Assembly (NCBI GenBank): GCA_963762255.1
Contig: CAVXKA010000001.1
Location: 96,001 to 160,000, forward strand
Source of the DNA: Candidatus Eiseniibacteriota bacterium
Lineage (GTDB): Bacteria > Eisenbacteria > RBG-16-71-46 > JABDJR01
Length of the DNA: 64,000 nucleotides
Direction of reading: 5' to 3'
The notes beneath the pieces were generated by a model. That model had not been told where the DNA came from, searched no databases, and saw only the letters and a list, made by a program, of their open reading frames with translations. This document shows positions 13,265-23,934 of this stretch, piece after piece (within the stretch, counting starts at the first letter, position 1; every line of letters begins with the position of its first letter). The position numbers and the translations under genes are program-made.

Positions 13265-16200
13265 GTGCCCGGTTCCCGGCTGCTCCTCCTCACGGCGATC
13301 CTGTCCGCGCTCGCGTCGCCCGGATTCGCTGCGATCGCGCCCGCGCTCGCGCTGGGGCTCGCGGCGACCCCACCTGCGGAGATCCTCCCCCCACCGGTCG
13401 TCTCGATGGGTCAGCCCCATCTCATTCAACTGCACTGGAGCCCGCTTGCCGGCTACAACTGGGATGCGGAGCAGCGAGTCAGCCGGCTCACGCTCTCGGT
13501 CGGGGGGGAGCCGCGCATCCCACAGTTCGGCCTCGTGCAGACGAGCTTCGCGGGGTTCGCGGGAGAGCGGGGAGGCGACTTCGACTGCGGGCTCGCCGCC
13601 TATCTCAAGATCCCGTGGGTGCACGCGGGGCTCGAGTTCAGCATCCCCGACGAGGATCTCATCGCCACCTTCGCCGCCGAGTTCGGACTGCGTCGCAGCG
13701 GACTTCTTCACCGCGGCGACGCCGTACGAATCGACTACCGTCCGTGGAAGCGGGAAGTCCTGGTGGGCCTCACCCTGGTCGAGCCACTGCGGCGCTACCG
13801 CCGCACACGCCCGCTCGCCATGCACGTGGCGCTCCCCGAGGGCGAGATCCCCCGCGCGGTGAAGCCGATCCGCAAGGAAGGTCTTCCCCGCGATCTCGAG
13901 GAGTCGCTCCAGCGGCTCGATCACCACATCGTCTGGATCGACCGCCTCCTCACCCCGCATTTCCAACCGGGCGGCGAATTCGCAGAGAGCGCCGAGTTCT
14001 ACCGCGCGCACGTGCGCGACGCCGGCCACTCCTTCGCCGACGAGGACGCCGGCTACCATGAGGAGTTGGAACGAGCGTTCACCATCGCCGCCGGCGCAGA
14101 CACCGCGGCGGGGCGGGAGCTGGCCCTGCGCGCGGAGACGATCCTCCTCGACCGCGTCCTCGTCCCCTTCAACCACTGCTTCGCCCAGATCAAGAAGCCG
14201 GCGAACATCGAGGGCTACGCGCGGCAAGGACTGCAGGAATTCGAGCGTGTTCTGATCGAGCGCTTCGGGGCTGAGCCGATTGGGAACGAGGGGCTCGACC
14301 CTGCCGAGCCCTCCGGCCGCCGCGAACTCTGCCGTGAAGTCTTCCGCCGCACGCTGGACGCGATCGACCGCGTGGCCCGGGCCACGCGCAAGCGGTGGGA
14401 CCAGAAATTCATCTTCATCTTCCCCGAATTCCGGCTGGTCTGGCTGCCGCTCAACTACGGCGTGCGGCCCGGCCAGGTCGACACCCAGGAGGAGTGGGAC
14501 GAGTTGGTCGAGCGCCTCACCGGCCGCGCCTTCACCGACTGCAACACGATCGAGTACCTGGTGAACGAGCAGTTCCACCTGCGTCTCAAGGCCATGGTGC
14601 GCGCCACCGAGACCTACCACGTCCTCCACATCCATGACGTGCGGGGGCTCTATGAGCGGAAACTCACCGACCGGATAGGCTGGGATCTCGTGATGGACGG
14701 CTATCTGCGGGCCTTCACGGACGCCGTGGGCGCCATCGATCGCGGCGAGCGCCGGCGTCTTCCCCAGTTCCTCCTCTTCCTTGACGAGAACTTCTACTCC
14801 GACAACCGCTCGCGCGGGATCGTCACCTTTCTGGAGAACCTGTACGCGCCCGAGGAACCCGAGTCGATAGACGAGCCTACGATGAAGACGGTGCTGCGCG
14901 CCCAACGTACGTTGCGGGCGGCCATCGAGGCGTCCCCCACCTTCGGCAAACTCTCCGAGCGCGAACTGCGGCGCCTCTTCAAAGTCCACGTCAACATCAC
15001 CCACCCGTTCGATCTCACCTTCGGTGGCGACGCGCCCCTGCGCGATCACCGCAAGGTCGCGTTCCGGGACGTGGTCGAGGACGATCCGAGCTCCGGTGAA
15101 GCGATCGCCACCGGCCAGGGCGTGGGTGAGCACTACAACGGCACCGGGTGGGACGACCGTAGCATCGTCGTTCGCGGGCCGGCGTTGGTGGCGTTCAAGA
15201 CCGGCGTGCGGGAGCTGTTCCTGAGCCAAGGATACGAAGAGAAGGACGTTCCCGAGTGCCTACGCGCACTGCCCGTTTCACCGGATTACGAGGAGCGGTG
15301 CGAGGCGCTGCGTGTGGCCGGATGGACGACCCCGGTCTCGGTGGTCATGAACCGGGTCGGTTACGGCGAGAAGATCGCCACCGTGCTCAAGGCCATGCAG
15401 TACAACCTGGCCCCGCCGGGCAGCACGATCCTCACCTTCGATTCCCTCTGGATCAGCGACTACTGGGCGGGAATGCTGACGGCGGCGGCCATGCGCGGGG
15501 TCGGCGTGTATGTCGTGGCGCCGACCGTGGGAAACGCCCCGAGCAGCGCCATCCCCACCATGGTCCTCTTGCGCGAGAACATGAGCCGTCTCTTCGAAGC
15601 GTCGCAGGTCTTCGCCGAGGAGATCGCCGCCGCGGACGGCTCGTTGAACGTCGGGCTCTACGCCACCAGGATCCCGGTGAGCGATCTGCGCGGACGCCTC
15701 GAGAGCGCGGTCGCTTGCTGGGAAGGCGATCCGCGGATGAAGGCGCGCTTCGGCCTGGACGCGGCCGTGCTGGACACGCTGCGCACACTCGCGGCGGCGT
15801 GGCCGCTCGAGCCGGCCCCCGAAGATACTCCGCGGGTGGTCGTCATTCCCATTCGCCAGGACCACAAACCGTTTCTCCACATGAAGACGCAGCTCCTGGC
15901 CGATGCGAGCGCCATGCGGGCGGTCCGGCGGCCGGAGTGGGCACACGTGATGGAGGAGCACCTTCGCATTCGCGCGCGCCAAGTCGCGGGATGTCTGGAT
16001 CCAGGGATCACGCCACGACTGCTTCCCGACAGCGGGCCGAACGCGGGTGTCGCCATGCTCCTGATCGGTTCTCAGAACCAGGACCGGCGCGGCATGATGA
16101 TGGACGGCGAGGTCACGGTGGCGATCTCGGGGCCGCACGCTCTCGTCGCGCTCCCCGACCTCATGCTCATTCTCGGCAACGCCACCTGGCCGCGGGACCG

Positions 16201-16285
16201 GGACGAGTTCACCCGGACGTTCCCCGAGGTCAAGGCTCCGGGGTTCCTCAAACGCGCCTTCCGCTACATCAAGGATCAGATCTGA
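13265..16285 (+). CDS. Large secreted phospholipase D-superfamily protein
   Basis: Signal peptide-like N-terminus; two HKD motifs (HRKVAFRD, HMKTQLLAD) and IGSQNQD. Confidence 0.65.
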   Translation: MPGSRLLLLTAILSALASPGFAAIAPALALGLAATPPAEILPPPVVSMGQPHLIQLHWSPLAGYNWDAEQRVSRLTLSVGGEPRIPQFGLVQTSFAGFAGERGGDFDCGLAAYLKIPWVHAGLEFSIPDEDLIATFAAEFGLRRSGLLHRGDAVRIDYRPWKREVLVGLTLVEPLRRYRRTRPLAMHVALPEGEIPRAVKPIRKEGLPRDLEESLQRLDHHIVWIDRLLTPHFQPGGEFAESAEFYRAHVRDAGHSFADEDAGYHEELERAFTIAAGADTAAGRELALRAETILLDRVLVPFNHCFAQIKKPANIEGYARQGLQEFERVLIERFGAEPIGNEGLDPAEPSGRRELCREVFRRTLDAIDRVARATRKRWDQKFIFIFPEFRLVWLPLNYGVRPGQVDTQEEWDELVERLTGRAFTDCNTIEYLVNEQFHLRLKAMVRATETYHVLHIHDVRGLYERKLTDRIGWDLVMDGYLRAFTDAVGAIDRGERRRLPQFLLFLDENFYSDNRSRGIVTFLENLYAPEEPESIDEPTMKTVLRAQRTLRAAIEASPTFGKLSERELRRLFKVHVNITHPFDLTFGGDAPLRDHRKVAFRDVVEDDPSSGEAIATGQGVGEHYNGTGWDDRSIVVRGPALVAFKTGVRELFLSQGYEEKDVPECLRALPVSPDYEERCEALRVAGWTTPVSVVMNRVGYGEKIATVLKAMQYNLAPPGSTILTFDSLWISDYWAGMLTAAAMRGVGVYVVAPTVGNAPSSAIPTMVLLRENMSRLFEASQVFAEEIAAADGSLNVGLYATRIPVSDLRGRLESAVACWEGDPRMKARFGLDAAVLDTLRTLAAAWPLEPAPEDTPRVVVIPIRQDHKPFLHMKTQLLADASAMRAVRRPEWAHVMEEHLRIRARQVAGCLDPGITPRLLPDSGPNAGVAMLLIGSQNQDRRGMMMDGEVTVAISGPHALVALPDLMLILGNATWPRDRDEFTRTFPEVKAPGFLKRAFRYIKDQI

Positions 16286-16320: not shown

Positions 16321-18024
16321 CTACAGGCTCGGGTTCAGGATGATCTTGCGCATCTCCTCGGCGCACACACGGCAGAACAGCCAGCTGAGGCTCCGCATGC
16401 AACAGCGGGCCTGACCGCGGAAGAAGTCCTTGCCGAGACAGTTTGTGTAGCGGTCTTCGTTGGTCCACTCCAGATTGTCGACGTTGGTGTCCTTCGGCAG
16501 GAACTGAGCGCCCCAGAAGAGACCCAGCCACCCGGGATCCTCGCTGGGGGAGAGGGTTTTCTTGTTGTATCGAATATCACAGTTGCTCGGCCCCTGGCAG
16601 TCGATGATGTGCGCGAACCCACCGGCGGACGTGCGTTCCTCCGTCGTGGTCAGGCCCTTCCACCAGACCTGATCCCTGTTTCCCCGGCTGACTTCGTTCG
16701 CGTGTTCGGTATAGCCGTCCCACGCGATCTTCCCCGTGTACTCCTCCACGATATCCCCGATGACGTGGGCCGACTCGTGGGCGGCGAGCTGTGCCAGCCA
16801 TACCTCGTGCAGGGGCACGAACGCGATCCGCTGTTCGTGGAAGGCGCTTCCCCCATATACGGGCGCGTTGACCAGCACGATGAAGAGCTGGATCTGGTCG
16901 GCGGGCGCGAAGTCCTCTGCCGCCCGGTAGACACGTCCGGGATCGGGGATACCGAGATACCCCGGATAAGACGACCCGCCTCCGCAGGGGGGCCAGCATC
17001 CCTCGACCTCGTAGTACGTCTGCTTGAGCGGCCAGGCGTAGGACGGCTCGCAGCTCCCCACGGCGCCGCATCGATAGACACCGGATGAGTGCGAGACGGC
17101 GCGGATGAGGTGGATGTTGATCTGATCCCGAAGTGCCTCGAACGGGGGCATCGACATGAGCTTATCGGCAACGTACCGAGCCCTCTGGTCGAACTTCTGC
17201 ATCTCACAGTGTTCGAACCCGTCCCCGGTGATGACGATGTTGAAGTGCGTGGCGGGATCCCCGCGATTCTGGATCGTCTCCTGGCTGTCGATCCAGCCGT
17301 TCGCGAGCAAAGGAGGATCATCCCAGCCCAGTTCGGGCAGATCCAGGAGGTGCTCGACGAAGAGAAGGAACGCCTTGAGAAGACCGAAGATCGGCAGCGG
17401 GAAGCCGGTCGGAGGAAATGGAGGAAGCGGCGGGAGCGGAGGCTTGCCCAGGCGGTAGAGCCCCAGCGCCTCGACGGCGAGCCGGACCCTTCCGAACTCG
17501 CCGTCCGTCACCAAGGCGTCCGCGGGCAGCGTGTGCTTCCCTGCGGGGCCGACCGCATCGACGCGCGTCCGCGCGAAGAGAAGGTAGGCGGCGTTCCGAG
17601 GAATGGGAAGGTGTAGCAGGCGATCGTCGAACCGAGGCGGCACCATGCCGCCACCCAGCGCTCCTGTCTTTTCGTCCACGATGACGTCTCCGAAGTAGCG
17701 GGGACGCGATGACCAGGCGTAGACCGCCAAAGGCCGCCGCCGGGCGTCATAGAGGGCGGCGATGACCTCTCCCGTCGAGGGCGGCACCTCGCCGAGGTTA
17801 TTGATCCCGAGCCTCATGGGGCGAAGCTCGCGTTGTGGCGGACGGATCGTGCCGCGGGCGAGCTTCAGGATCGGCGGCCGATTGCCGTCGAAACGCACGA
17901 GCATCGCCATGCTCTTGCCGGACCAAGCCGGTGGCTTCCTGCCGCGACGCGGCGGCCGGATTCGGGAGGGGGCCGACTTCGAGCGGGAACCCGTGGCACG
18001 AGTCGAACGCTTCCGGGCGGTCAT
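16321..18024 (-). CDS. M64 (IgA peptidase-like) zinc metallopeptidase
   Basis: NIVITGDGF, PPFEALRDQINI, YGGS, HESAHVIGDIVEEY (HExxH...EY), CMRSLSWLFCRVC; ATG overlaps the rSAM stop (ATGA). Confidence 0.8.
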   Translation of the reverse strand: MTARKRSTRATGSRSKSAPSRIRPPRRGRKPPAWSGKSMAMLVRFDGNRPPILKLARGTIRPPQRELRPMRLGINNLGEVPPSTGEVIAALYDARRRPLAVYAWSSRPRYFGDVIVDEKTGALGGGMVPPRFDDRLLHLPIPRNAAYLLFARTRVDAVGPAGKHTLPADALVTDGEFGRVRLAVEALGLYRLGKPPLPPLPPFPPTGFPLPIFGLLKAFLLFVEHLLDLPELGWDDPPLLANGWIDSQETIQNRGDPATHFNIVITGDGFEHCEMQKFDQRARYVADKLMSMPPFEALRDQINIHLIRAVSHSSGVYRCGAVGSCEPSYAWPLKQTYYEVEGCWPPCGGGSSYPGYLGIPDPGRVYRAAEDFAPADQIQLFIVLVNAPVYGGSAFHEQRIAFVPLHEVWLAQLAAHESAHVIGDIVEEYTGKIAWDGYTEHANEVSRGNRDQVWWKGLTTTEERTSAGGFAHIIDCQGPSNCDIRYNKKTLSPSEDPGWLGLFWGAQFLPKDTNVDNLEWTNEDRYTNCLGKDFFRGQARCCMRSLSWLFCRVCAEEMRKIILNPSL

Positions 18025-19307
18025 GGCTCTACTCCTTCTCGTCGCGGGCGGCCCGCGCCCGCGACCTGTCGCTGAAATTCCTCGCGGGCCGCGAGCGAGA
18101 TGCGATTGTAGGCGCAGTGGAAATCTGGAATCCGATGAGGATCGCGGTTGCCGGAGATGTGGCCGATCGCGATCGGGCAGACCGAGCAGTCGTGCAGGTA
18201 ACGACACTCGGCGCAAAGACCATAGGAAGAGTGTTTCTTCTCGCGCTGGTTGAACATGTCGATGGCCACGACCGCGTCGGGAAGCGAGGCGAGACGAGCC
18301 ATGAACCCTGCGGAGCCGATATTCCCCAGCCGGAGCGGCCCCAGCCGGGGCTGCAGAAGATCCCCTGGAAATTCCTGAAGTGACTCGAGCCACGTGGGGC
18401 AGCCTGCGACTTCACCGTCGGGGGCCACGGTGATTTCCTCGCCGTGGCCCGCGCCGCACATGGCGCGCCCGTTCGAATCCTGAACCCGCCCAGACCCGTT
18501 GCTTGCGTGGTTGCCGTTCCGCAGGGCCCGCGCCTTCGAGGAAGACCGGAACCCAGCGAAGGGGATTTCTCCGCTCACGCCGTGGAGTCCAACGCTCAGG
18601 TCGACAATCCGCTCGAACTGAACCCCGAGCTTCCGGTACCCCACCGCCGACCAGTCCGGGTTCGCTGCGATGACCGGAGAGACCGTGATCCTGCGCACGC
18701 CCCTGCCGGTGAGGTAGTGGATCGCATCGGCCAGGCCGCCGACCGCACTTGGCGTGAGGGTGATGCCGACGGTGAGACTCCGACGCAGGAACGCCGGCTG
18801 ATCCCGCCTCAACTCCTCGAGCCGGCGATCGAGCACGGCGAACGTGCCTCGGCCGCGAAGGGTCTGCGCGGTCGGCGTTCCATCGAAGCTCAGGAGCACC
18901 TCGAATCCAGCGCCGACAAGATACGAGGCCACTTCGGGACGCAGGAGGGTGCCGTTGGTGATGAGTGCCGGTCGGAACGACTTCCCATTCGATCGCACGC
19001 GTCGCGCGTACTCGACCGCGCGTCGGATCAACGGCAGCTCGAGCAACGGTTCACCGCCGGAGAAGAGCAGCCGCACGTCGTCCGCCCGCGAGGCGGCGGC
19101 CAGGTCCACCGCCTCGCGCAACGTCTCCCAGCTCATGCGGCGCGCCGGTTTGCGGTTCTGATAGCAGTACGAGCACCGCAAGTTGCACCGGCCCGTGAGC
19201 ACCAGATGCACCTTTCGCAGGTCCCTAGCCGGCGCGTTTGAGGACGCGAAACGAGGGCGGCGCTGACCGGCGCGAATGCCGGCTTCCGCTCCGCCGCGGC
19301 CTCTCAT
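18021..19307 (-). CDS. Radical SAM/SPASM-domain maturase
   Basis: CNLRCSYC, FSGGEPLL, TNGTLL, SFDG; SPASM cysteines CGAG...GCP...CAECRYLHDCSVCP...C; GAGGAG RBS. Confidence 0.92.
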   Translation of the reverse strand: MRGRGGAEAGIRAGQRRPRFASSNAPARDLRKVHLVLTGRCNLRCSYCYQNRKPARRMSWETLREAVDLAAASRADDVRLLFSGGEPLLELPLIRRAVEYARRVRSNGKSFRPALITNGTLLRPEVASYLVGAGFEVLLSFDGTPTAQTLRGRGTFAVLDRRLEELRRDQPAFLRRSLTVGITLTPSAVGGLADAIHYLTGRGVRRITVSPVIAANPDWSAVGYRKLGVQFERIVDLSVGLHGVSGEIPFAGFRSSSKARALRNGNHASNGSGRVQDSNGRAMCGAGHGEEITVAPDGEVAGCPTWLESLQEFPGDLLQPRLGPLRLGNIGSAGFMARLASLPDAVVAIDMFNQREKKHSSYGLCAECRYLHDCSVCPIAIGHISGNRDPHRIPDFHCAYNRISLAAREEFQRQVAGAGRPRREGVEP

Positions 19308-19314
19308 GCGCTCC

Positions 19315-19656
19315 TCAGGCCTCGGGCTCAGGCGGCGGACAGCCGTAGTCCAATCCCGGTCCACCGTCAGCAGGAGGAGGCGGTGGTGGACAGCCGTAGT
19401 CGAGAACCTGGGGCACGCCCCCGGGACTCTGCGCCGTGCTCGCGGGCAGCACGATCCTCATGGTGGGGGGGAGGAGCAGCAGGATCTCGCGCAAGGAGCG
19501 GCACCAGTTCTCGATCCCATAGAGCGCGTCCGTGATCTGCTTGATCGTCACCACGCCGCCCAGGGGCTTCAGTCGCTTGACGGCCTTCTTCTTGGTCGCC
19601 TTCTTCTTTGCGGTCTTCTTCACCACCTTCTTCTTTGTCGTCTTCTTCTTCGCCAT
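19315..19656 (-). CDS. Candidate RiPP precursor peptide (113 aa) with duplicated LDYGCPPP core
   Basis: AG-rich RBS; Lys-rich N-terminus, central helix, two LDYGCPPP repeats; ends 7 bp before the rSAM start. Confidence 0.75.
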   Translation of the reverse strand: MAKKKTTKKKVVKKTAKKKATKKKAVKRLKPLGGVVTIKQITDALYGIENWCRSLREILLLLPPTMRIVLPASTAQSPGGVPQVLDYGCPPPPPPADGGPGLDYGCPPPEPEA

Positions 19657-19708
19657 CGTTCTCTCCTCTCGCCGCGATGCGTCGCGGCACGGTTGCGCCG
19701 AAGGGCGC

Positions 19709-22384
19709 CTATCGGCGCTCGCTCGTCGCGTCGAGCACCCAGATATCTCCGTCCTTGGCCTCCCGGCACCAGACGATGAGCCGTCCGTCCCGGGTGACAT
19801 CGAAGAAACCGGCGGGATCCCTTCGCCCAAAGGCGATCTCGGGCTCGATCGATCGGATGGATCCGTCCTCCAGGGAAATCCGCTTCAGCGTCAGAGCCGG
19901 AGAGCCCCAGGTGCCGCTCACGAGGAGGACGCGACCTCCGGGCTCCCAACGAACGCGACTCGCGTGTGCGCCCTTCGTCACGGCGCGTGGAACCGCGTCG
20001 GGGGCGGCGGCAACGATGTAGACGTCGGCCGCCCCCTCAATGCTCTTCGTGTACGCGATCTGCGTACCGTCCGGCGACCAGGAAGGGGCTTGCGCGGCCG
20101 GCCCTGAGGCGGCTATCTCAAACGGGGCTCCCCGCGGTTCACCGTCGGTTACGCGCTCGATCCAGAGGCGAGCGCTTCCACCCCGTTCGGAGGAATATGC
20201 GATCTGCGTCCCGTCCGGGGACCATGCGGGATGGACGTCGGGTCCGGGCTCGCGGGTGAACTGCCGAGGCAACCCGCCCCCGATGGGGAGCATCCAAATG
20301 TCGCGCTCGTCGTCGAGGATCCGGTAGTAGGCGATCCACTTGCCGTCGGGCGAAACGACCGGATGCGATGCGGAGCCGGGGTGTTCTGTGAGCCGGCGCG
20401 GGTCTCCCTGCGGGCGCCCGTCGAGAAGGGGCTGAAGCCACAGGTCGAGCTGCGGTCCCCAGCGGTCGGAAACGAAGACGAGTCCATCTCCTGCAGGCGT
20501 GAATGCCGGCATCCAGTCGTGACGAAAGCCCGGCAAGACCGTATCGCGCCCGCTCGGCACGTCGCGCACGACCATGCGGTACTCGACTTCCTCGGTGCAG
20601 TACGCGAGCCGCGTGCCGGCGCCGGAGAGGCTGGGATGGGTCTCCGACGCGTTGCCCAGCGTGACTCGCTCGGGCTTCCCTCCCGATGCGGCGACTTGCC
20701 ATATAGCAAGATTGCCGCTGCGATAGGACGAAAAGTAGATCGTGCGACCGTCGGTCGACCACACGGGCTCCTGATCCACGTCGCTGCCGGACAGGATCCT
20801 CCGCGGCCGGCCACCGCTCGACGGCACCTGCCACAGCCCGTCAGAGGATGCGTAGCAAATGTGCTTCCCGTCCGGGGACCACGCCGGCTGTCGCTGACCC
20901 CACAGGCCGAAGCCGGGCCCGGTGAGATCAACCGCCTCGGCCGCATCGTCCATCGGAGCCACGAAGACCCGAGTCGATCCCGAGGAGTCCTCGCGCGCGA
21001 ATGCCAACCGCTTGCCGTCCGGCGAAGCAGCGGGATCGCTCGCGTTTTCTGCAACGAGTACGGCGGGACCACCCATCTGCCCGGTCTTCCAAACCCCGTC
21101 CGAGCCGAGACGGTCGGAGACGAACAGCACGGCACTGCCGTCGGGGAGCCACGTCGGGCTGAAGTCGGAGGCTGGATCGTTGGTCAGAGCAATGGGACTC
21201 CCGCCGTTCACCCCGATCGCGTACACCTCCAGGTTGCCCGATATATCCGAGACGTAGGTCACTCTCCCGCCGTCCGGCGAGAGTGCGGGTTCGCTCTCCC
21301 AAGCCTCGGAGCTGGTGACCTGGATGGGCTGCGCGCGTGCGAATGGTGGCAAAGCGGTCCGGCCGGGAATGATGCGCAAGAGGGTGAACGCCGCGACGAC
21401 AAGCAGAATGGCTCCGGCGGCGGCGAGGCCGATGCGCCGCAGTTGGTGCGGCCTCGGCATCGGGAACTGAGGGTGCGTCTCCGAGTACTCCCTGAATTCA
21501 AGCTGCTTGTGAACCGCTCGCAGGTCGGTGAGCAGATCGCGCGCGCTCTGGTAGCGCTCGTCCGGCCGCTTGGCCAGACACTTGCGGATGATCCGCTCCA
21601 ACTCATCCGGAACCTCGTAGGTGTGCTTCCCGATCGGTTCGGGCTCGCGGTTGAGGATCTCCCCCACCAGCTCGCCCTGGCTCGTGGAGTGGAAGGCGGG
21701 CGCCCCCGTGCACATTTCGTAGAGCACCGCACCCAGGGCGAAGATGTCGGTGCGGGCATCCGTCGGGCGGCCCAGAACCTGCTCCGGCGCCATGTAGCGC
21801 GGCGTTCCCACGACCGCTCCAGTCGAGGTCAGGCCAACGCTCTCGGTGGAAGTACTCGCGTCGGCCTCCCCCGTCATCAACGTACGCGCGAGCCCGAAAT
21901 CGGTGAGAAGCGCGCGACCGCTGGCGTCGATCAGGATGTTCTTGGGATTCACGTCGCGATGGATGACGCCGTGCTCGTGGGCGGCGTGCAACGCCGACGC
22001 CAGCTCGACCGCATGCGCCAGCACGGTCGTGCAGAGGAGCTTCCCGCCTTGTGCGAGACGGTCGCGCAGGCTCACTCCCTCGACGAGTTGGAAGACGATC
22101 CAGGGAACGCCGTTCTCTTCGAAGGCCTCGAGGACCGCGACGATGTTCGGGTGGGAGACGCGAGAGGCCGCCTTTCCTTCGCGCAGGAACCGGCGGCGAA
22201 GCTCCATCGAGCCAAGCAACTCCGGGAGAGGGCGCTTGAGAGCAACGTCCCGGCTGAGGTTCAAATCACGCGCCTGAAACACGATGCCCATACCGCCACG
22301 GCCGATTTCGTTCACGATTTCGTAGTGGCGGACGCGCTCGCCTGGGACAGGGCTATGCGGGAGTGCTTCCCGGTCGTCGGGCAT
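19709..22384 (-). CDS. Hanks-type Ser/Thr kinase with TM helix and TolB-like (PD40) beta-propeller
   Basis: GRGGMG, VALKR, HRDVNPKN, DFG, GTPRYMAPE; TM IGLAAAGAILLVVAAF; many P(A/T)WSPDG repeats. Confidence 0.93.
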   Translation of the reverse strand: MPDDREALPHSPVPGERVRHYEIVNEIGRGGMGIVFQARDLNLSRDVALKRPLPELLGSMELRRRFLREGKAASRVSHPNIVAVLEAFEENGVPWIVFQLVEGVSLRDRLAQGGKLLCTTVLAHAVELASALHAAHEHGVIHRDVNPKNILIDASGRALLTDFGLARTLMTGEADASTSTESVGLTSTGAVVGTPRYMAPEQVLGRPTDARTDIFALGAVLYEMCTGAPAFHSTSQGELVGEILNREPEPIGKHTYEVPDELERIIRKCLAKRPDERYQSARDLLTDLRAVHKQLEFREYSETHPQFPMPRPHQLRRIGLAAAGAILLVVAAFTLLRIIPGRTALPPFARAQPIQVTSSEAWESEPALSPDGGRVTYVSDISGNLEVYAIGVNGGSPIALTNDPASDFSPTWLPDGSAVLFVSDRLGSDGVWKTGQMGGPAVLVAENASDPAASPDGKRLAFAREDSSGSTRVFVAPMDDAAEAVDLTGPGFGLWGQRQPAWSPDGKHICYASSDGLWQVPSSGGRPRRILSGSDVDQEPVWSTDGRTIYFSSYRSGNLAIWQVAASGGKPERVTLGNASETHPSLSGAGTRLAYCTEEVEYRMVVRDVPSGRDTVLPGFRHDWMPAFTPAGDGLVFVSDRWGPQLDLWLQPLLDGRPQGDPRRLTEHPGSASHPVVSPDGKWIAYYRILDDERDIWMLPIGGGLPRQFTREPGPDVHPAWSPDGTQIAYSSERGGSARLWIERVTDGEPRGAPFEIAASGPAAQAPSWSPDGTQIAYTKSIEGAADVYIVAAAPDAVPRAVTKGAHASRVRWEPGGRVLLVSGTWGSPALTLKRISLEDGSIRSIEPEIAFGRRDPAGFFDVTRDGRLIVWCREAKDGDIWVLDATSERR

Positions 22385-22434: not shown

Positions 22435-22463
22435 ATTATATGGCAAGAAATGTGAAAAGACAA
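22435..22463 (-). promoter_or_regulatory. Sigma70 promoter of the kinase-RiPP operon
   Basis: TTGTCT-N17-TATAAT in an AT-rich patch, bracketed by inverted repeat CTTGAAT/ATTCAAG. Confidence 0.75.
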
Positions 22464-22564: not shown

Positions 22565-22617
22565 AGTTCGCCGGATCCGCTCCAAAGAGCAACGCGGCCT
22601 GCCGCGACCGGCCCGCC

Positions 22618-23934
22618 CTAGAACGGCAGACGCATCCCGCCGAACTTCCGCTGGCCCTTCATGAGCTTGGCCATACGCTGCATGTCGCGGAACTGCTTCA
22701 GGAGGTTGTTGATGTCCTGGACGCTGGTCCCGCTGCCGCGCGCGATGCGCTTGCGCCGGCTGCCGTTGATGAGGCTCGGTTGGTTCCGCTCCTGCAGGGT
22801 CATGGACTGGATGATCGCCTGGATGCGCACGAGCGCGCGGTCGTCGACCTTGAGCCCCTGCATCTGCTTGCCCACGCCGGGGATCATCTTGAGCATGTCC
22901 TCGAGGGGCCCCATCTTCTTGATCTGCTCGAGCTGGGAAAGGAAGTCCTCGAAGGTGAACTCCTCGCGGCGCAGGCGCTCCGCCATGCGCGCCGCTTCGT
23001 GAACGTCCACCGATTCCTGCGCGCGCTCGACCAGCGTGAGCACGTCCCCCATGCCGAGGATGCGCGAGGCCATGCGGTCGGGGTGAAAGTCCTCGAGCGC
23101 CTCCGCCTTCTCGCCGACGCCCACGAACTTGATCGGGACGCCGGTGACGTGCACCACCGAGAGCGCCGCGCCGCCGCGTGCGTCGCCGTCCATCTTCGTG
23201 AGGACAACGCCGGTGAAGGCGATGCGCTTGGCGAAGGTGTCGGCGAGGTTCACCGCATCCTGGCCGGTGAGCCCGTCAAGAACAAGCAGTGTCTCGATGG
23301 GCCCCACCGAGGCCTTGATCTGCGCGAGTTCCTCCATGAGCGGTTCGTCGACATGGAGGCGACCGGCGGTGTCGAGCACGACGAGGTCGAAGTCGCGCTG
23401 GCGGGCTTCGGCGACGCCTTGCTTGCAGATGCTGACGGGGTCCTGGCCGCGGCGGATGAAGACTTCCGCGCCGACCTGCTTTGCGACGACTTCGAGTTGA
23501 TCCATCGCGGCGGGGCGCTGCGTGTCGGCGGCCACGAGGAGCACGCGCTTCTGGCGCTTCAAGAAACGGTGAGCGAGTTTGCCGCAGAAGGTGGTCTTGC
23601 CTGAGCCCTGCAGGCCGCAGACCATGACGATGGTGGGGCCGTTCTGGGCCTGGGCGAGGGGACGATGGTTGGAGCCGAGGAGGTGGACCATCTCGTCGTA
23701 GACGACCTTGACCACCTGCTGGGCGGGGTGAAGACCCTTGAGGGTCTCGAGGCCGACCGCCTTCTCTTCGATGCGGGCGACGAACTCCTTGGCGACCTTG
23801 AAGTTGACGTCGGCTTCGAGGAGGGCGCGGCGGACTTCGCGCAGGCTCTCCTTGATGTTCTCGGGCGTGAGGGAGCCATGCCCGCGGAGCTTGCGGAAGA
23901 CGTCGTCGAATTTGGAGGAGAGGGATTCGAACAT
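22618..23934 (-). CDS. ffh: Signal recognition particle protein Ffh
   Basis: LLEADVN, GLQGSGKTT, DTAGR, TKMDGDARGG, SRRKRIARGSG. Confidence 0.98.
   Translation of the reverse strand: MFESLSSKFDDVFRKLRGHGSLTPENIKESLREVRRALLEADVNFKVAKEFVARIEEKAVGLETLKGLHPAQQVVKVVYDEMVHLLGSNHRPLAQAQNGPTIVMVCGLQGSGKTTFCGKLAHRFLKRQKRVLLVAADTQRPAAMDQLEVVAKQVGAEVFIRRGQDPVSICKQGVAEARQRDFDLVVLDTAGRLHVDEPLMEELAQIKASVGPIETLLVLDGLTGQDAVNLADTFAKRIAFTGVVLTKMDGDARGGAALSVVHVTGVPIKFVGVGEKAEALEDFHPDRMASRILGMGDVLTLVERAQESVDVHEAARMAERLRREEFTFEDFLSQLEQIKKMGPLEDMLKMIPGVGKQMQGLKVDDRALVRIQAIIQSMTLQERNQPSLINGSRRKRIARGSGTSVQDINNLLKQFRDMQRMAKLMKGQRKFGGMRLPF

Follow-up and report, generated by a model that had tools for sequence, protein, structure and literature searches.

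A radical SAM/SPASM enzyme, a family of small cysteine-bearing proteins, and a PD40-propeller receptor kinase form a candidate peptide modification module in Eisenbacteria and other bacteria

Within a 64,000-nucleotide stretch of a Candidatus Eiseniibacteriota genome (hereafter the window; contig CAVXKA010000001.1 of assembly GCA_963762255.1, positions 96,001 to 160,000 of the forward strand), we identified a minus-strand array of genes coding, in this order, for a receptor-type Ser/Thr kinase, a small cysteine-bearing protein, an enzyme of the radical S-adenosylmethionine (SAM)/SPASM type, and an M64-like zinc metallopeptidase. Comparative analysis of this locus leads us to favor, on balance, the view that the small protein and the radical SAM (rSAM) enzyme constitute a system for Cys-centered modification, in its likeliest form thioether formation, that is tied to signaling through the receptor kinase. 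The kinase gene (19709..22384; 891 aa) was delineated by its Pfam matches, a hydrophobic segment, and its catalytic loop. It is followed by the gene for the small precursor-like protein P0001 (19315..19656; 113 aa), recognized from its translation and an upstream GGAGAG-type ribosome-binding site; by the rSAM/SPASM gene (18021..19307; 428 aa; P0002), recognized by Pfam matches, Cys motifs, and fold; and by the peptidase gene (16321..18024; 567 aa; P0003), assigned to Pfam family PF09471. The ATG of the rSAM gene starts 7 bases beyond the stop codon of the small-protein gene, and the rSAM stop and M64 start codons overlap as ATGA. The translations confirmed this coupled arrangement of small protein, rSAM/SPASM enzyme, and M64 peptidase, which an earlier note on this DNA had described as a three-gene peptide maturation system. 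Homologous small proteins occupy the same place in dozens of genomes, which excludes a chance origin of the small open reading frame (ORF).

That earlier description was right in pairing the rSAM/SPASM enzyme with an adjacent precursor-like peptide and missed the upstream PD40 receptor kinase, which proved to be the tightest partner of the pair. Full-length orthologs of the rSAM enzyme are found in 5 of 40 related genomes. A search of a collection with one genome per species returned 80 loci of 547 confirmed stretches; 48 of these (L015-L062; 30-63% identity) were used, and 32 (L063-L094) were left out, being rSAMs from Bacillota and elsewhere that were covered only in part or that reached no more than 29% identity over long stretches. 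In four of the 48, the small proteins are identical to those of loci from the 40 related genomes. In tblastn searches, a propeller gene was recovered directly upstream of the rSAM gene, on the same strand, in 40 of the 43 loci with at least 1.5 kb of upstream sequence, and kinase and propeller were recovered together in 36 of the 39 loci with at least 3.5 kb. The M64 gene, on the other side, was found downstream in 12 of the 41 loci with at least 1.7 kb of downstream sequence. At nearly every locus, the gap between kinase and rSAM genes (239-866 bp) holds one to three small Cys-bearing ORFs, so that the expectation that homologous rSAMs would have co-occurring peptides in their neighborhoods is borne out for adjacent Cys peptides. 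Upon clustering of the neighboring ORFs, just three families recurred around the rSAM gene; an additional ORF cluster seen at 10 loci was discarded, as its coordinates indicate antisense shadow ORFs lying over the kinase and rSAM genes.

The linkage also holds at the level of whole genomes. Among 206 genomes of the window's phylum, 12 have an rSAM ortholog at an E value of ≤1e-50, and the same 12, and none other, hold an ortholog of the propeller at ≤1e-115, in each case next to the rSAM gene on one contig. The set includes an unpublished genome (G081), whose omission brings the count to 11 of 205; one further genome of the 206 yielded a weak match (5e-47). This phylogenetic-profile co-occurrence is given as counts, without a statistic, and kindred genomes are not independent of each other. 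The 12 genomes are spread across 10 of 83 genera; thus, the module is patchy and accessory. As labeled in the records, the taxa that carry it are Acidobacteriota (Vicinamibacteria, Thermoanaerobaculia, and Holophagae), Candidatus Eisenbacteria, Krumholzibacteriota, "Fibrobacteraceae," and one member of "Microthrixaceae," along with related phyla that are uncultured. The rSAM of the "Microthrixaceae" locus (L044), nominally from Actinomycetota, groups with that of a Vicinamibacteria locus (L017) with a Shimodaira-Hasegawa-like approximate likelihood ratio test (SH-aLRT) value of 87, a placement that suggests either transfer or a binning error.

The small proteins are unified by a conserved helix. 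A 37-position profile of this helix, built from 13 small ORFs and searched against 1.84 billion representative proteins at an E value of ≤1e-3, matched 108 proteins, of which 107 are small (55-156 aa), the remaining one, P0219 (407 aa), being spurious; the counts below refer to these 107 representatives at 50% identity. The helix has the logo φ-T-V-x-[DH]-L-x-x-[AST]-L-x-x-I-E-x-W-x-x-x-V-R-x-A-L-x-x-L-[DP]-P, in which the L (94%), W (93%), and R (89%) are best conserved; the Thr is kept in just 63% and is therefore not a conserved phosphosite. A Cys is present in 105 of the 107 members, being exactly C terminal in 11 and lying within the last eight residues in 41; it is part of a CPP motif in 57, which extends to CPPP in 47, and nine members have at least two CPP motifs. 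The 69 CPP cores conform approximately to the consensus P-φ-x-φ-x-[G/N]-C-P-P-P-[D/E], with hydrophobic residues alternating upstream of the Cys, which is immediately preceded by Gly in 33 cores and by Asn in 12. As judged from these sequences, the Cys is the sole constant residue of the tail. Conservation does not extend to the D and Y of the DYGC core found in the window: 4 of the 107 members have YG(G)C and 6 have [DE]xxCP, and DYGC or YGGC cores recur in the closest relatives (P0124, P0125, P0130, and P0136). What is conserved around the Cys is the preceding Gly/Asn and the following Pro-Pro(-Pro), which argues against the Cys-Asp or Tyr-centered cross-link that had been proposed from the window alone. 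On the same YG(G)C count, the cores likewise show no conserved x-Tyr-Gly signature of the kind found in splicease substrates. We consequently discarded both splicease activity and a family-wide Cys-Asp chemistry.

The helix usually lies N terminal to the core. Nevertheless, in 7 of the 62 members that could be classified, the core precedes it, and some members have a helix-core-helix arrangement, tandem helix-core units, or two helices. Twenty-five of the 107 have a K/R-rich stretch (poly-Lys/Arg tail) at the N or C terminus. Scans of 16 precursors against Pfam and NCBIfam matched no family, and the helix profile found no match below an E value of 0.01 among PDB sequences; the earlier impression of an unfamiliar precursor family is hence upheld, as no model of either database covers the enzyme or the peptide. 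With a conserved recognition segment and a variable core encoded beside a modifying enzyme, these proteins have the general makeup of precursors of ribosomally synthesized and posttranslationally modified peptides (RiPPs), and this unnamed family of small cysteine-bearing peptides is real and apparently undescribed. Parts of the module are multiplied in some genomes (L007, 859-3766; L052, 2232-2909; L042 and L048). At one locus, three small genes precede the rSAM gene and another, which has three PQVIGDQC[AG]P repeats, follows it; L042 and L048 are labeled as the same assembly, which places two modules in one genome.

In the window, the small protein begins with a Lys-rich tail (residues 2-29; 19570..19653), which is coded by four overlapping imperfect direct repeats with 12- to 15-nucleotide spacing (19576-19659). 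The conserved amphipathic helix, the presumed recognition element, spans residues 38-60 (19477..19545). An AlphaFold2 (AF2) model based on 70 relatives predicts this single helix and otherwise no secondary structure, with predicted local distance difference test (pLDDT) values of 95-98 across residues 41-70. The C-terminal part contains two exact copies of the core cassette LDYGCPPP spaced 17 residues apart, start to start, one at residues 85-92 (19381..19404; Cys89) and the other at residues 102-109 (19330..19353; Cys106). Cys89 is nearly invariant in the alignment of the 70 sequences. The underlying 14-mer GGACAGCCGTAGTC is found at two positions only in the window, 19337 and 19388, as had been reported before, and it was matched in 0 of 100 shuffles; the repeat extends to 20 nucleotides at 90% identity. 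The CPPP[E/D] run of the second cassette ends four codons before the stop of the small ORF (19315-19353), with the rSAM start 7 bases further on (19300-19310). A search of the protein's own genome gave a sole other match with an E value of 0.18, which we treated as chance, and residues 28-113 searched against a protein atlas gave no usable match.

The neighboring enzyme belongs to the radical SAM superfamily, as indicated by a Pfam Radical_SAM (PF04055) score of 65.2 bits (cutoff, 29.5) and by a CX3CX2C motif (C41, C45, and C48; 19164..19187) for the SAM-binding 4Fe-4S cluster, the Cys residues of which are nearly invariant among its relatives. Its SPASM region (18114..18458) has seven Cys residues that are invariant in an alignment of 61 sequences (C284-x13-G298-x4-C303, C365-x2-C368-x5-C374-x2-C377, and C398), and no eighth Cys is conserved in that alignment. 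This pattern fits the seven-Cys SPASM motif CX9-15GX4C ... CX2CX5CX3C ... C, which binds two auxiliary clusters (PMC6231123), except that the final spacing is x2 instead of x3. The Pfam SPASM profile (PF13186) scored 14.9 bits (E value of 0.034), below its cutoff of 21.5; the Cys pattern is present nonetheless. None of the best 25 of the 76 NCBIfam families matching the enzyme attains its curated cutoff. The top match is PapB (NF047865; 117.9 bits against a cutoff of 340, covering residues 32-240 only), followed at a distance by CcpM (96.1/500), QhpD (91.3/453), and SCIFF (TIGR03974; 64.1/425), and the anaerobic sulfatase-maturating enzyme (anSME) family TIGR03942 scores 55.7-56.8 bits against 349. 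Many family members (P0006-P0122) bear the Joint Genome Institute (JGI) label "sulfatase maturation enzyme AslB," which is probably wrong given the TIGR03942 score of 55.7 against 349.

The AF2 model of the rSAM enzyme has a pLDDT of 86.1, and its nearest structure by Foldseek is CteB (5wgg; E value of 6e-16), which is also the top match by sequence in the PDB; anSME (4k37; template modeling score [TMt] of 0.73-0.76), ChlB (9gm3), and TigE (8vpo) come next, all at <20% identity. The enzyme has no RiPP recognition element (RRE) of its own: its core starts near residue 30, and the CteB alignment begins at residue 98 of CteB. Nor was a PqqD-like family seen among the Pfam matches or such a gene found to recur in the neighborhoods. 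The absence of an RRE and of a transporter at the locus, which had been remarked upon before, therefore stands in both the PDB sequence match and the clustering of neighborhood ORFs.

The upstream kinase consists of a Pkinase domain (residues ~21-279; PF00069, 160.7 bits against a cutoff of 31.7), one transmembrane helix (~318-336), and a PD40 (TolB-like) β-propeller (~357-891; 207.1 bits in eight stretches). The motifs GRGGMGIV, VALK, HRD, and DFG identify it as a Hanks-type kinase, and a hydrophobic segment between kinase and propeller, with a mean Kyte-Doolittle value of at least 1.57, is found in 31 of the 32 orthologs examined. Its catalytic loop reads HRDVNPKN (21938-21961, minus strand), departing from the canonical HRDxKxxN in its Lys. 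Of the 32 orthologs, 19 keep this Lys and 13 have Asn, Ser, or Thr instead, with the Gly loop, VAIK, HRD, and DFG motifs staying in place; the window protein may thus belong to a subgroup of atypical kinases or pseudokinases. The propeller aligns over its full 536 residues, at 35-49% identity, with orthologs encoded beside the rSAM gene in other genomes, and at 74% with that of a same-genus relative; its best paralog in its own genome scores 86.8 bits across 216 residues. These comparisons indicate that a specific kinase subfamily is tied to the rSAM enzyme and that the propeller is what marks it. Complex prediction for the propeller and the small protein, run without controls, returned a score of 0.00, which speaks neither for nor against binding.

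The M64 peptidase is a less constant component. Its Pfam score is 67.7 bits against a cutoff of 26 (60 bits in the genome scan), and only positions 3-165 of the 302 of the profile, its first half, are matched. The catalytic part lies at residues ~251-432, with the motif HESAH...EEY at 416-429 kept in 12 homologs; 3p1v and 4df9 are its relatives in the PDB. The window copy, in which no signal peptide was seen, is the only one in the genome. The earlier note had cast this enzyme as the protease that releases the modified cores, a role that is not supported as a general one, given its restricted distribution and its absence from the same-genus relative. When core types were curated by hand and 9 of 50 rows left out as not assessable, the remaining 41 comprised 11 loci with both M64 and a CPP core, 27 with neither, 2 with M64 only (L061 and L038), and 1 with CPP only (L037). 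M64 is therefore accessory and tracks the Cys-Pro-Pro cores. The clearest contrast is that between the window, with M64 and two CPPP cassettes, and its same-genus sister, which has no M64 and a core reading LEWGCFH, with no CPP. Most of the loci with M64 and CPP cluster together in the rSAM tree, in a group of weak support; among three contrasts on supported branches, M64 and CPP move the same way in about two and never in opposite directions. The type M64 enzyme, the immunoglobulin A (IgA) peptidase of Clostridium ramosum, has its cleavage site in a proline-rich hinge, and many members of the small-protein family from loci without M64 end exactly at the Cys. On the basis of this precedent and this distribution, M64 might trim the proline-rich follower where the core reads Cys-Pro-Pro(-Pro).

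These observations can be combined into a tentative mechanism. The rSAM enzyme would dock on the conserved L/W/R helix, located on either side of the core, and form a thioether between the sulfur of the Cys and a carbon atom of some nearby residue, while an open iron of auxiliary cluster I holds the substrate thiol in the manner of CteB and PapB. An open site on auxiliary cluster I of CteB binds a substrate Cys (PMC6231123), and PapB and Tte1186 bind the substrate chalcogen at an auxiliary cluster (PMC10177961). Where M64 is present, it would process the product, which might then act with the kinase, most simply as a ligand of the propeller. The individual steps differ in how far we would commit to them. 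That the helix-bearing small protein is the substrate of the rSAM enzyme, and its Cys the site of modification, we regard as highly probable. A thioether cross-link is a candidate to which we give somewhat less than even chances, because the nearest families and structures form thioethers and because auxiliary cluster I would be expected to have an open iron when seven, rather than eight, SPASM Cys residues are conserved. Sensing of the modified product by the kinase propeller appears doubtful. We consider it slightly more doubtful still that the full scenario applies, namely, that the Cys peptide is the cognate ligand of the PD40 kinase in an autocrine or pheromone module built on a Hanks-type kinase and spread horizontally among Acidobacteriota, Eisenbacteria, and Krumholzibacteriota, with M64 as an extracytoplasmic activating protease for the Pro-Pro-Pro cores.

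Several observations weigh against this favored combination of peptide modification and kinase signaling. Three assessable loci (L035, L045, and L057) lack the adjacent kinase, and in the window kinase the catalytic-loop Lys is replaced. The small proteins have no signal peptide, and no transporter was seen in the neighborhoods, which leaves export toward the propeller unexplained. Conservation of the propeller equals that of the enzyme, in contrast to the hypervariable cores, a pattern not usual for signal-receptor pairs that codiversify. The compartment of M64 is inconsistent, because lipoprotein-type N termini, as judged by eye, are present in only some homologs (L019, L021, L039, and L061) and not in others (the window, L016, L018, and L024). 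The three loci with only one of M64 and CPP run counter to their link, which is further weakened by phylogenetic clustering, the three independent contrasts on supported branches being underpowered (median P value of 0.5). As regards chemistry, it is the anSME fold that best covers the rSAM model (TMt of 0.76), and the likeness to characterized rSAMs is remote throughout, at <20% identity and below every cutoff seen, because of which the reaction cannot be read from homology.

Of the competing explanations, the likeliest takes the small protein as an intracellular partner of the kinase (a substrate, an adaptor, or a nucleic-acid- or membrane-binding regulator) that is Cys modified and kept whole, with M64 as a late addition with another role. 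It would account for the lack of signal peptides and transporters and for the poly-Lys/Arg tails, and it accommodates members in which the core precedes the helix or which have two helices; it also has a precedent in the SPASM enzyme CrpC, which installs thioethers on the whole protein CrpA (PMC13692751). Nevertheless, RiPP precursors typically show just such hypervariable tails, multicopy cores, and tandem gene paralogs; the kinase subfamily is distinguished by its extracytoplasmic propeller; and four M64 homologs resemble exported lipoproteins. We therefore hold this alternative to be unlikely. The main chemical rival posits an anSME-like enzyme that would oxidize the Cys at its C-β to formylglycine, yielding an aldehyde instead of a cross-link. 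In its favor, the enzyme shares with anSME a core plus SPASM layout without an RRE, anSME structures are the best covered, AslB is the family's name in the JGI pipelines, and the Cys alone is conserved in the core, with the Pro at +2 resembling C-x-P. The sulfatase motif, C/S-x-P/A-x-R, however, also calls for an Arg, and at the corresponding place, +4 after the Cys, only 6 of the 69 CPP cores have one. The TIGR03942 score is likewise far below its cutoff, and on these two grounds we rejected membership in the anSME family itself. Moreover, the window family conserves seven cluster Cys residues, whereas anSME has eight cluster-ligating Cys residues and fully ligated clusters (PMC6231123). We accordingly rate formylglycine formation as rather less likely than the intracellular partner.

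The notion of a self-contained three-gene RiPP cluster, in which DYGC would be cross-linked via its Asp or Tyr or its Tyr-Gly would be spliced, with release by a dedicated M64, draws on the translational coupling of the genes, on the recurrence of DYGC/YGGC cores in four close relatives, and on PapB, the best NCBIfam match of the enzyme, which links Cys to Asp. The rarity of YG(G)C and [DE]xxCP across the family and the scarcity of M64, which is missing from the same-genus relative, next to a far more constant kinase make this improbable. The same genomic proximity could be read in yet another way, with the small ORF serving mainly as a regulatory leader. Polyproline runs stall ribosomes, a stalling that elongation factor P (EF-P) relieves, and the CPPP[DE] runs lie near the stop, shortly before the rSAM start. 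Translation of the rSAM might thus be coupled to polyproline stalling, with Pro-Pro-Pro-Asp/Glu tuning it. Nevertheless, the near-invariant L, W, and R of the helix, like the invariant Cys, are signs of a functional protein; CPP is missing from half of the family; and in seven members the core precedes the helix, far from the stop; as the main function of the ORF, we therefore consider this highly improbable.

With regard to the surroundings of the locus in the window, a promoter-like site precedes the kinase gene (22435..22463, minus strand); it is a consensus match only and the sole such site of the region. A terminator-like hairpin (22593-22610) follows the gene preceding the kinase. That gene, a 438-aa ORF on the minus strand (22618-23934), by eye resembles the signal recognition particle GTPase Ffh. 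On the plus strand, a 1,006-aa ORF (13265-16285) is convergent with the M64 gene and matched no Pfam family at an E value of ≤0.01; in the same-genus relative, a counterpart with 68% identity (L015, 4958-7885) lies immediately next to the rSAM gene.

Peptide maturation by radical SAM/SPASM enzymes is already known as such. What appears new here is a precursor family matching no Pfam or NCBIfam model, a clade of RRE-less enzymes below all of the curated cutoffs seen, a presumed recognition helix that would act from either side of the core, and strict genomic linkage to a single orthologous family of receptor Ser/Thr kinases. In the open full-text literature, we found no description of the module, of the CPPP precursor family, or of a RiPP-associated M64; subscription journals and supplements were outside the scope of that search. 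To our knowledge, no ligand has been described for the PD40-propeller kinases that abound in soil Acidobacteria and their allies, and the module offers a concrete candidate for a ligand-receptor pair. It also provides a first candidate class of physiological M64 substrates outside IgA cleavage. The presence of kinase-adjacent peptide and rSAM genes across several soil-bacterial phyla hints at a peptide-signaling system, and with three or four genes, the system is small enough to make heterologous reconstitution practical.

Among characterized systems, the closest counterparts are PapB/PapA (freyrasin) and CteB/CteA (SCIFF, thermocellin), which likewise combine a radical SAM core with a SPASM region, two auxiliary clusters, and Cys residues in an adjacently encoded peptide. 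PapB is the best family match of the window enzyme and CteB its best structural match, with scores far below the respective cutoffs of 340 and 425; the seven-Cys SPASM region would allow auxiliary cluster I to have an open site, like that of CteB. The window module differs from both in lacking an N-terminal RRE, in its unrelated precursor family with usually one Cys per core and a helix on either side of it, and in its obligate receptor kinase partner. CrpC/CrpA of Methanococcus voltae, which forms ranthionine cross-links, resembles it in pairing a SPASM rSAM with a neighbor-encoded, protein-sized substrate; it is set apart by the predicted RRE reported for CrpC, a Cys-rich CrpA, and no kinase (PMC13692751). 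With anSME (4k37), the enzyme shares the RRE-less layout and a substrate in which the Cys is followed by x-Pro, but it has seven instead of eight cluster Cys residues, and its presumed substrate is a dedicated small protein rather than a sulfatase. The window M64 keeps the zinc motif HExxH...EEY of the type enzyme, whose proline-rich hinge target would fit a Cys-Pro-Pro-Pro substrate; it differs in its N-terminal 230 residues and in its linkage to an rSAM and peptide pair. Finally, the coupling of a modified ribosomal peptide to a membrane kinase or a Ser/Thr kinase domain is known from Agr and ComX/ComP and from the class III/IV lanthipeptide synthetases, respectively. The window kinase differs from those of Agr and ComP, which are histidine kinases, in being a Hanks-type PD40 receptor, and from the lanthipeptide synthetases in having no lyase or cyclase and in being a separate membrane protein.

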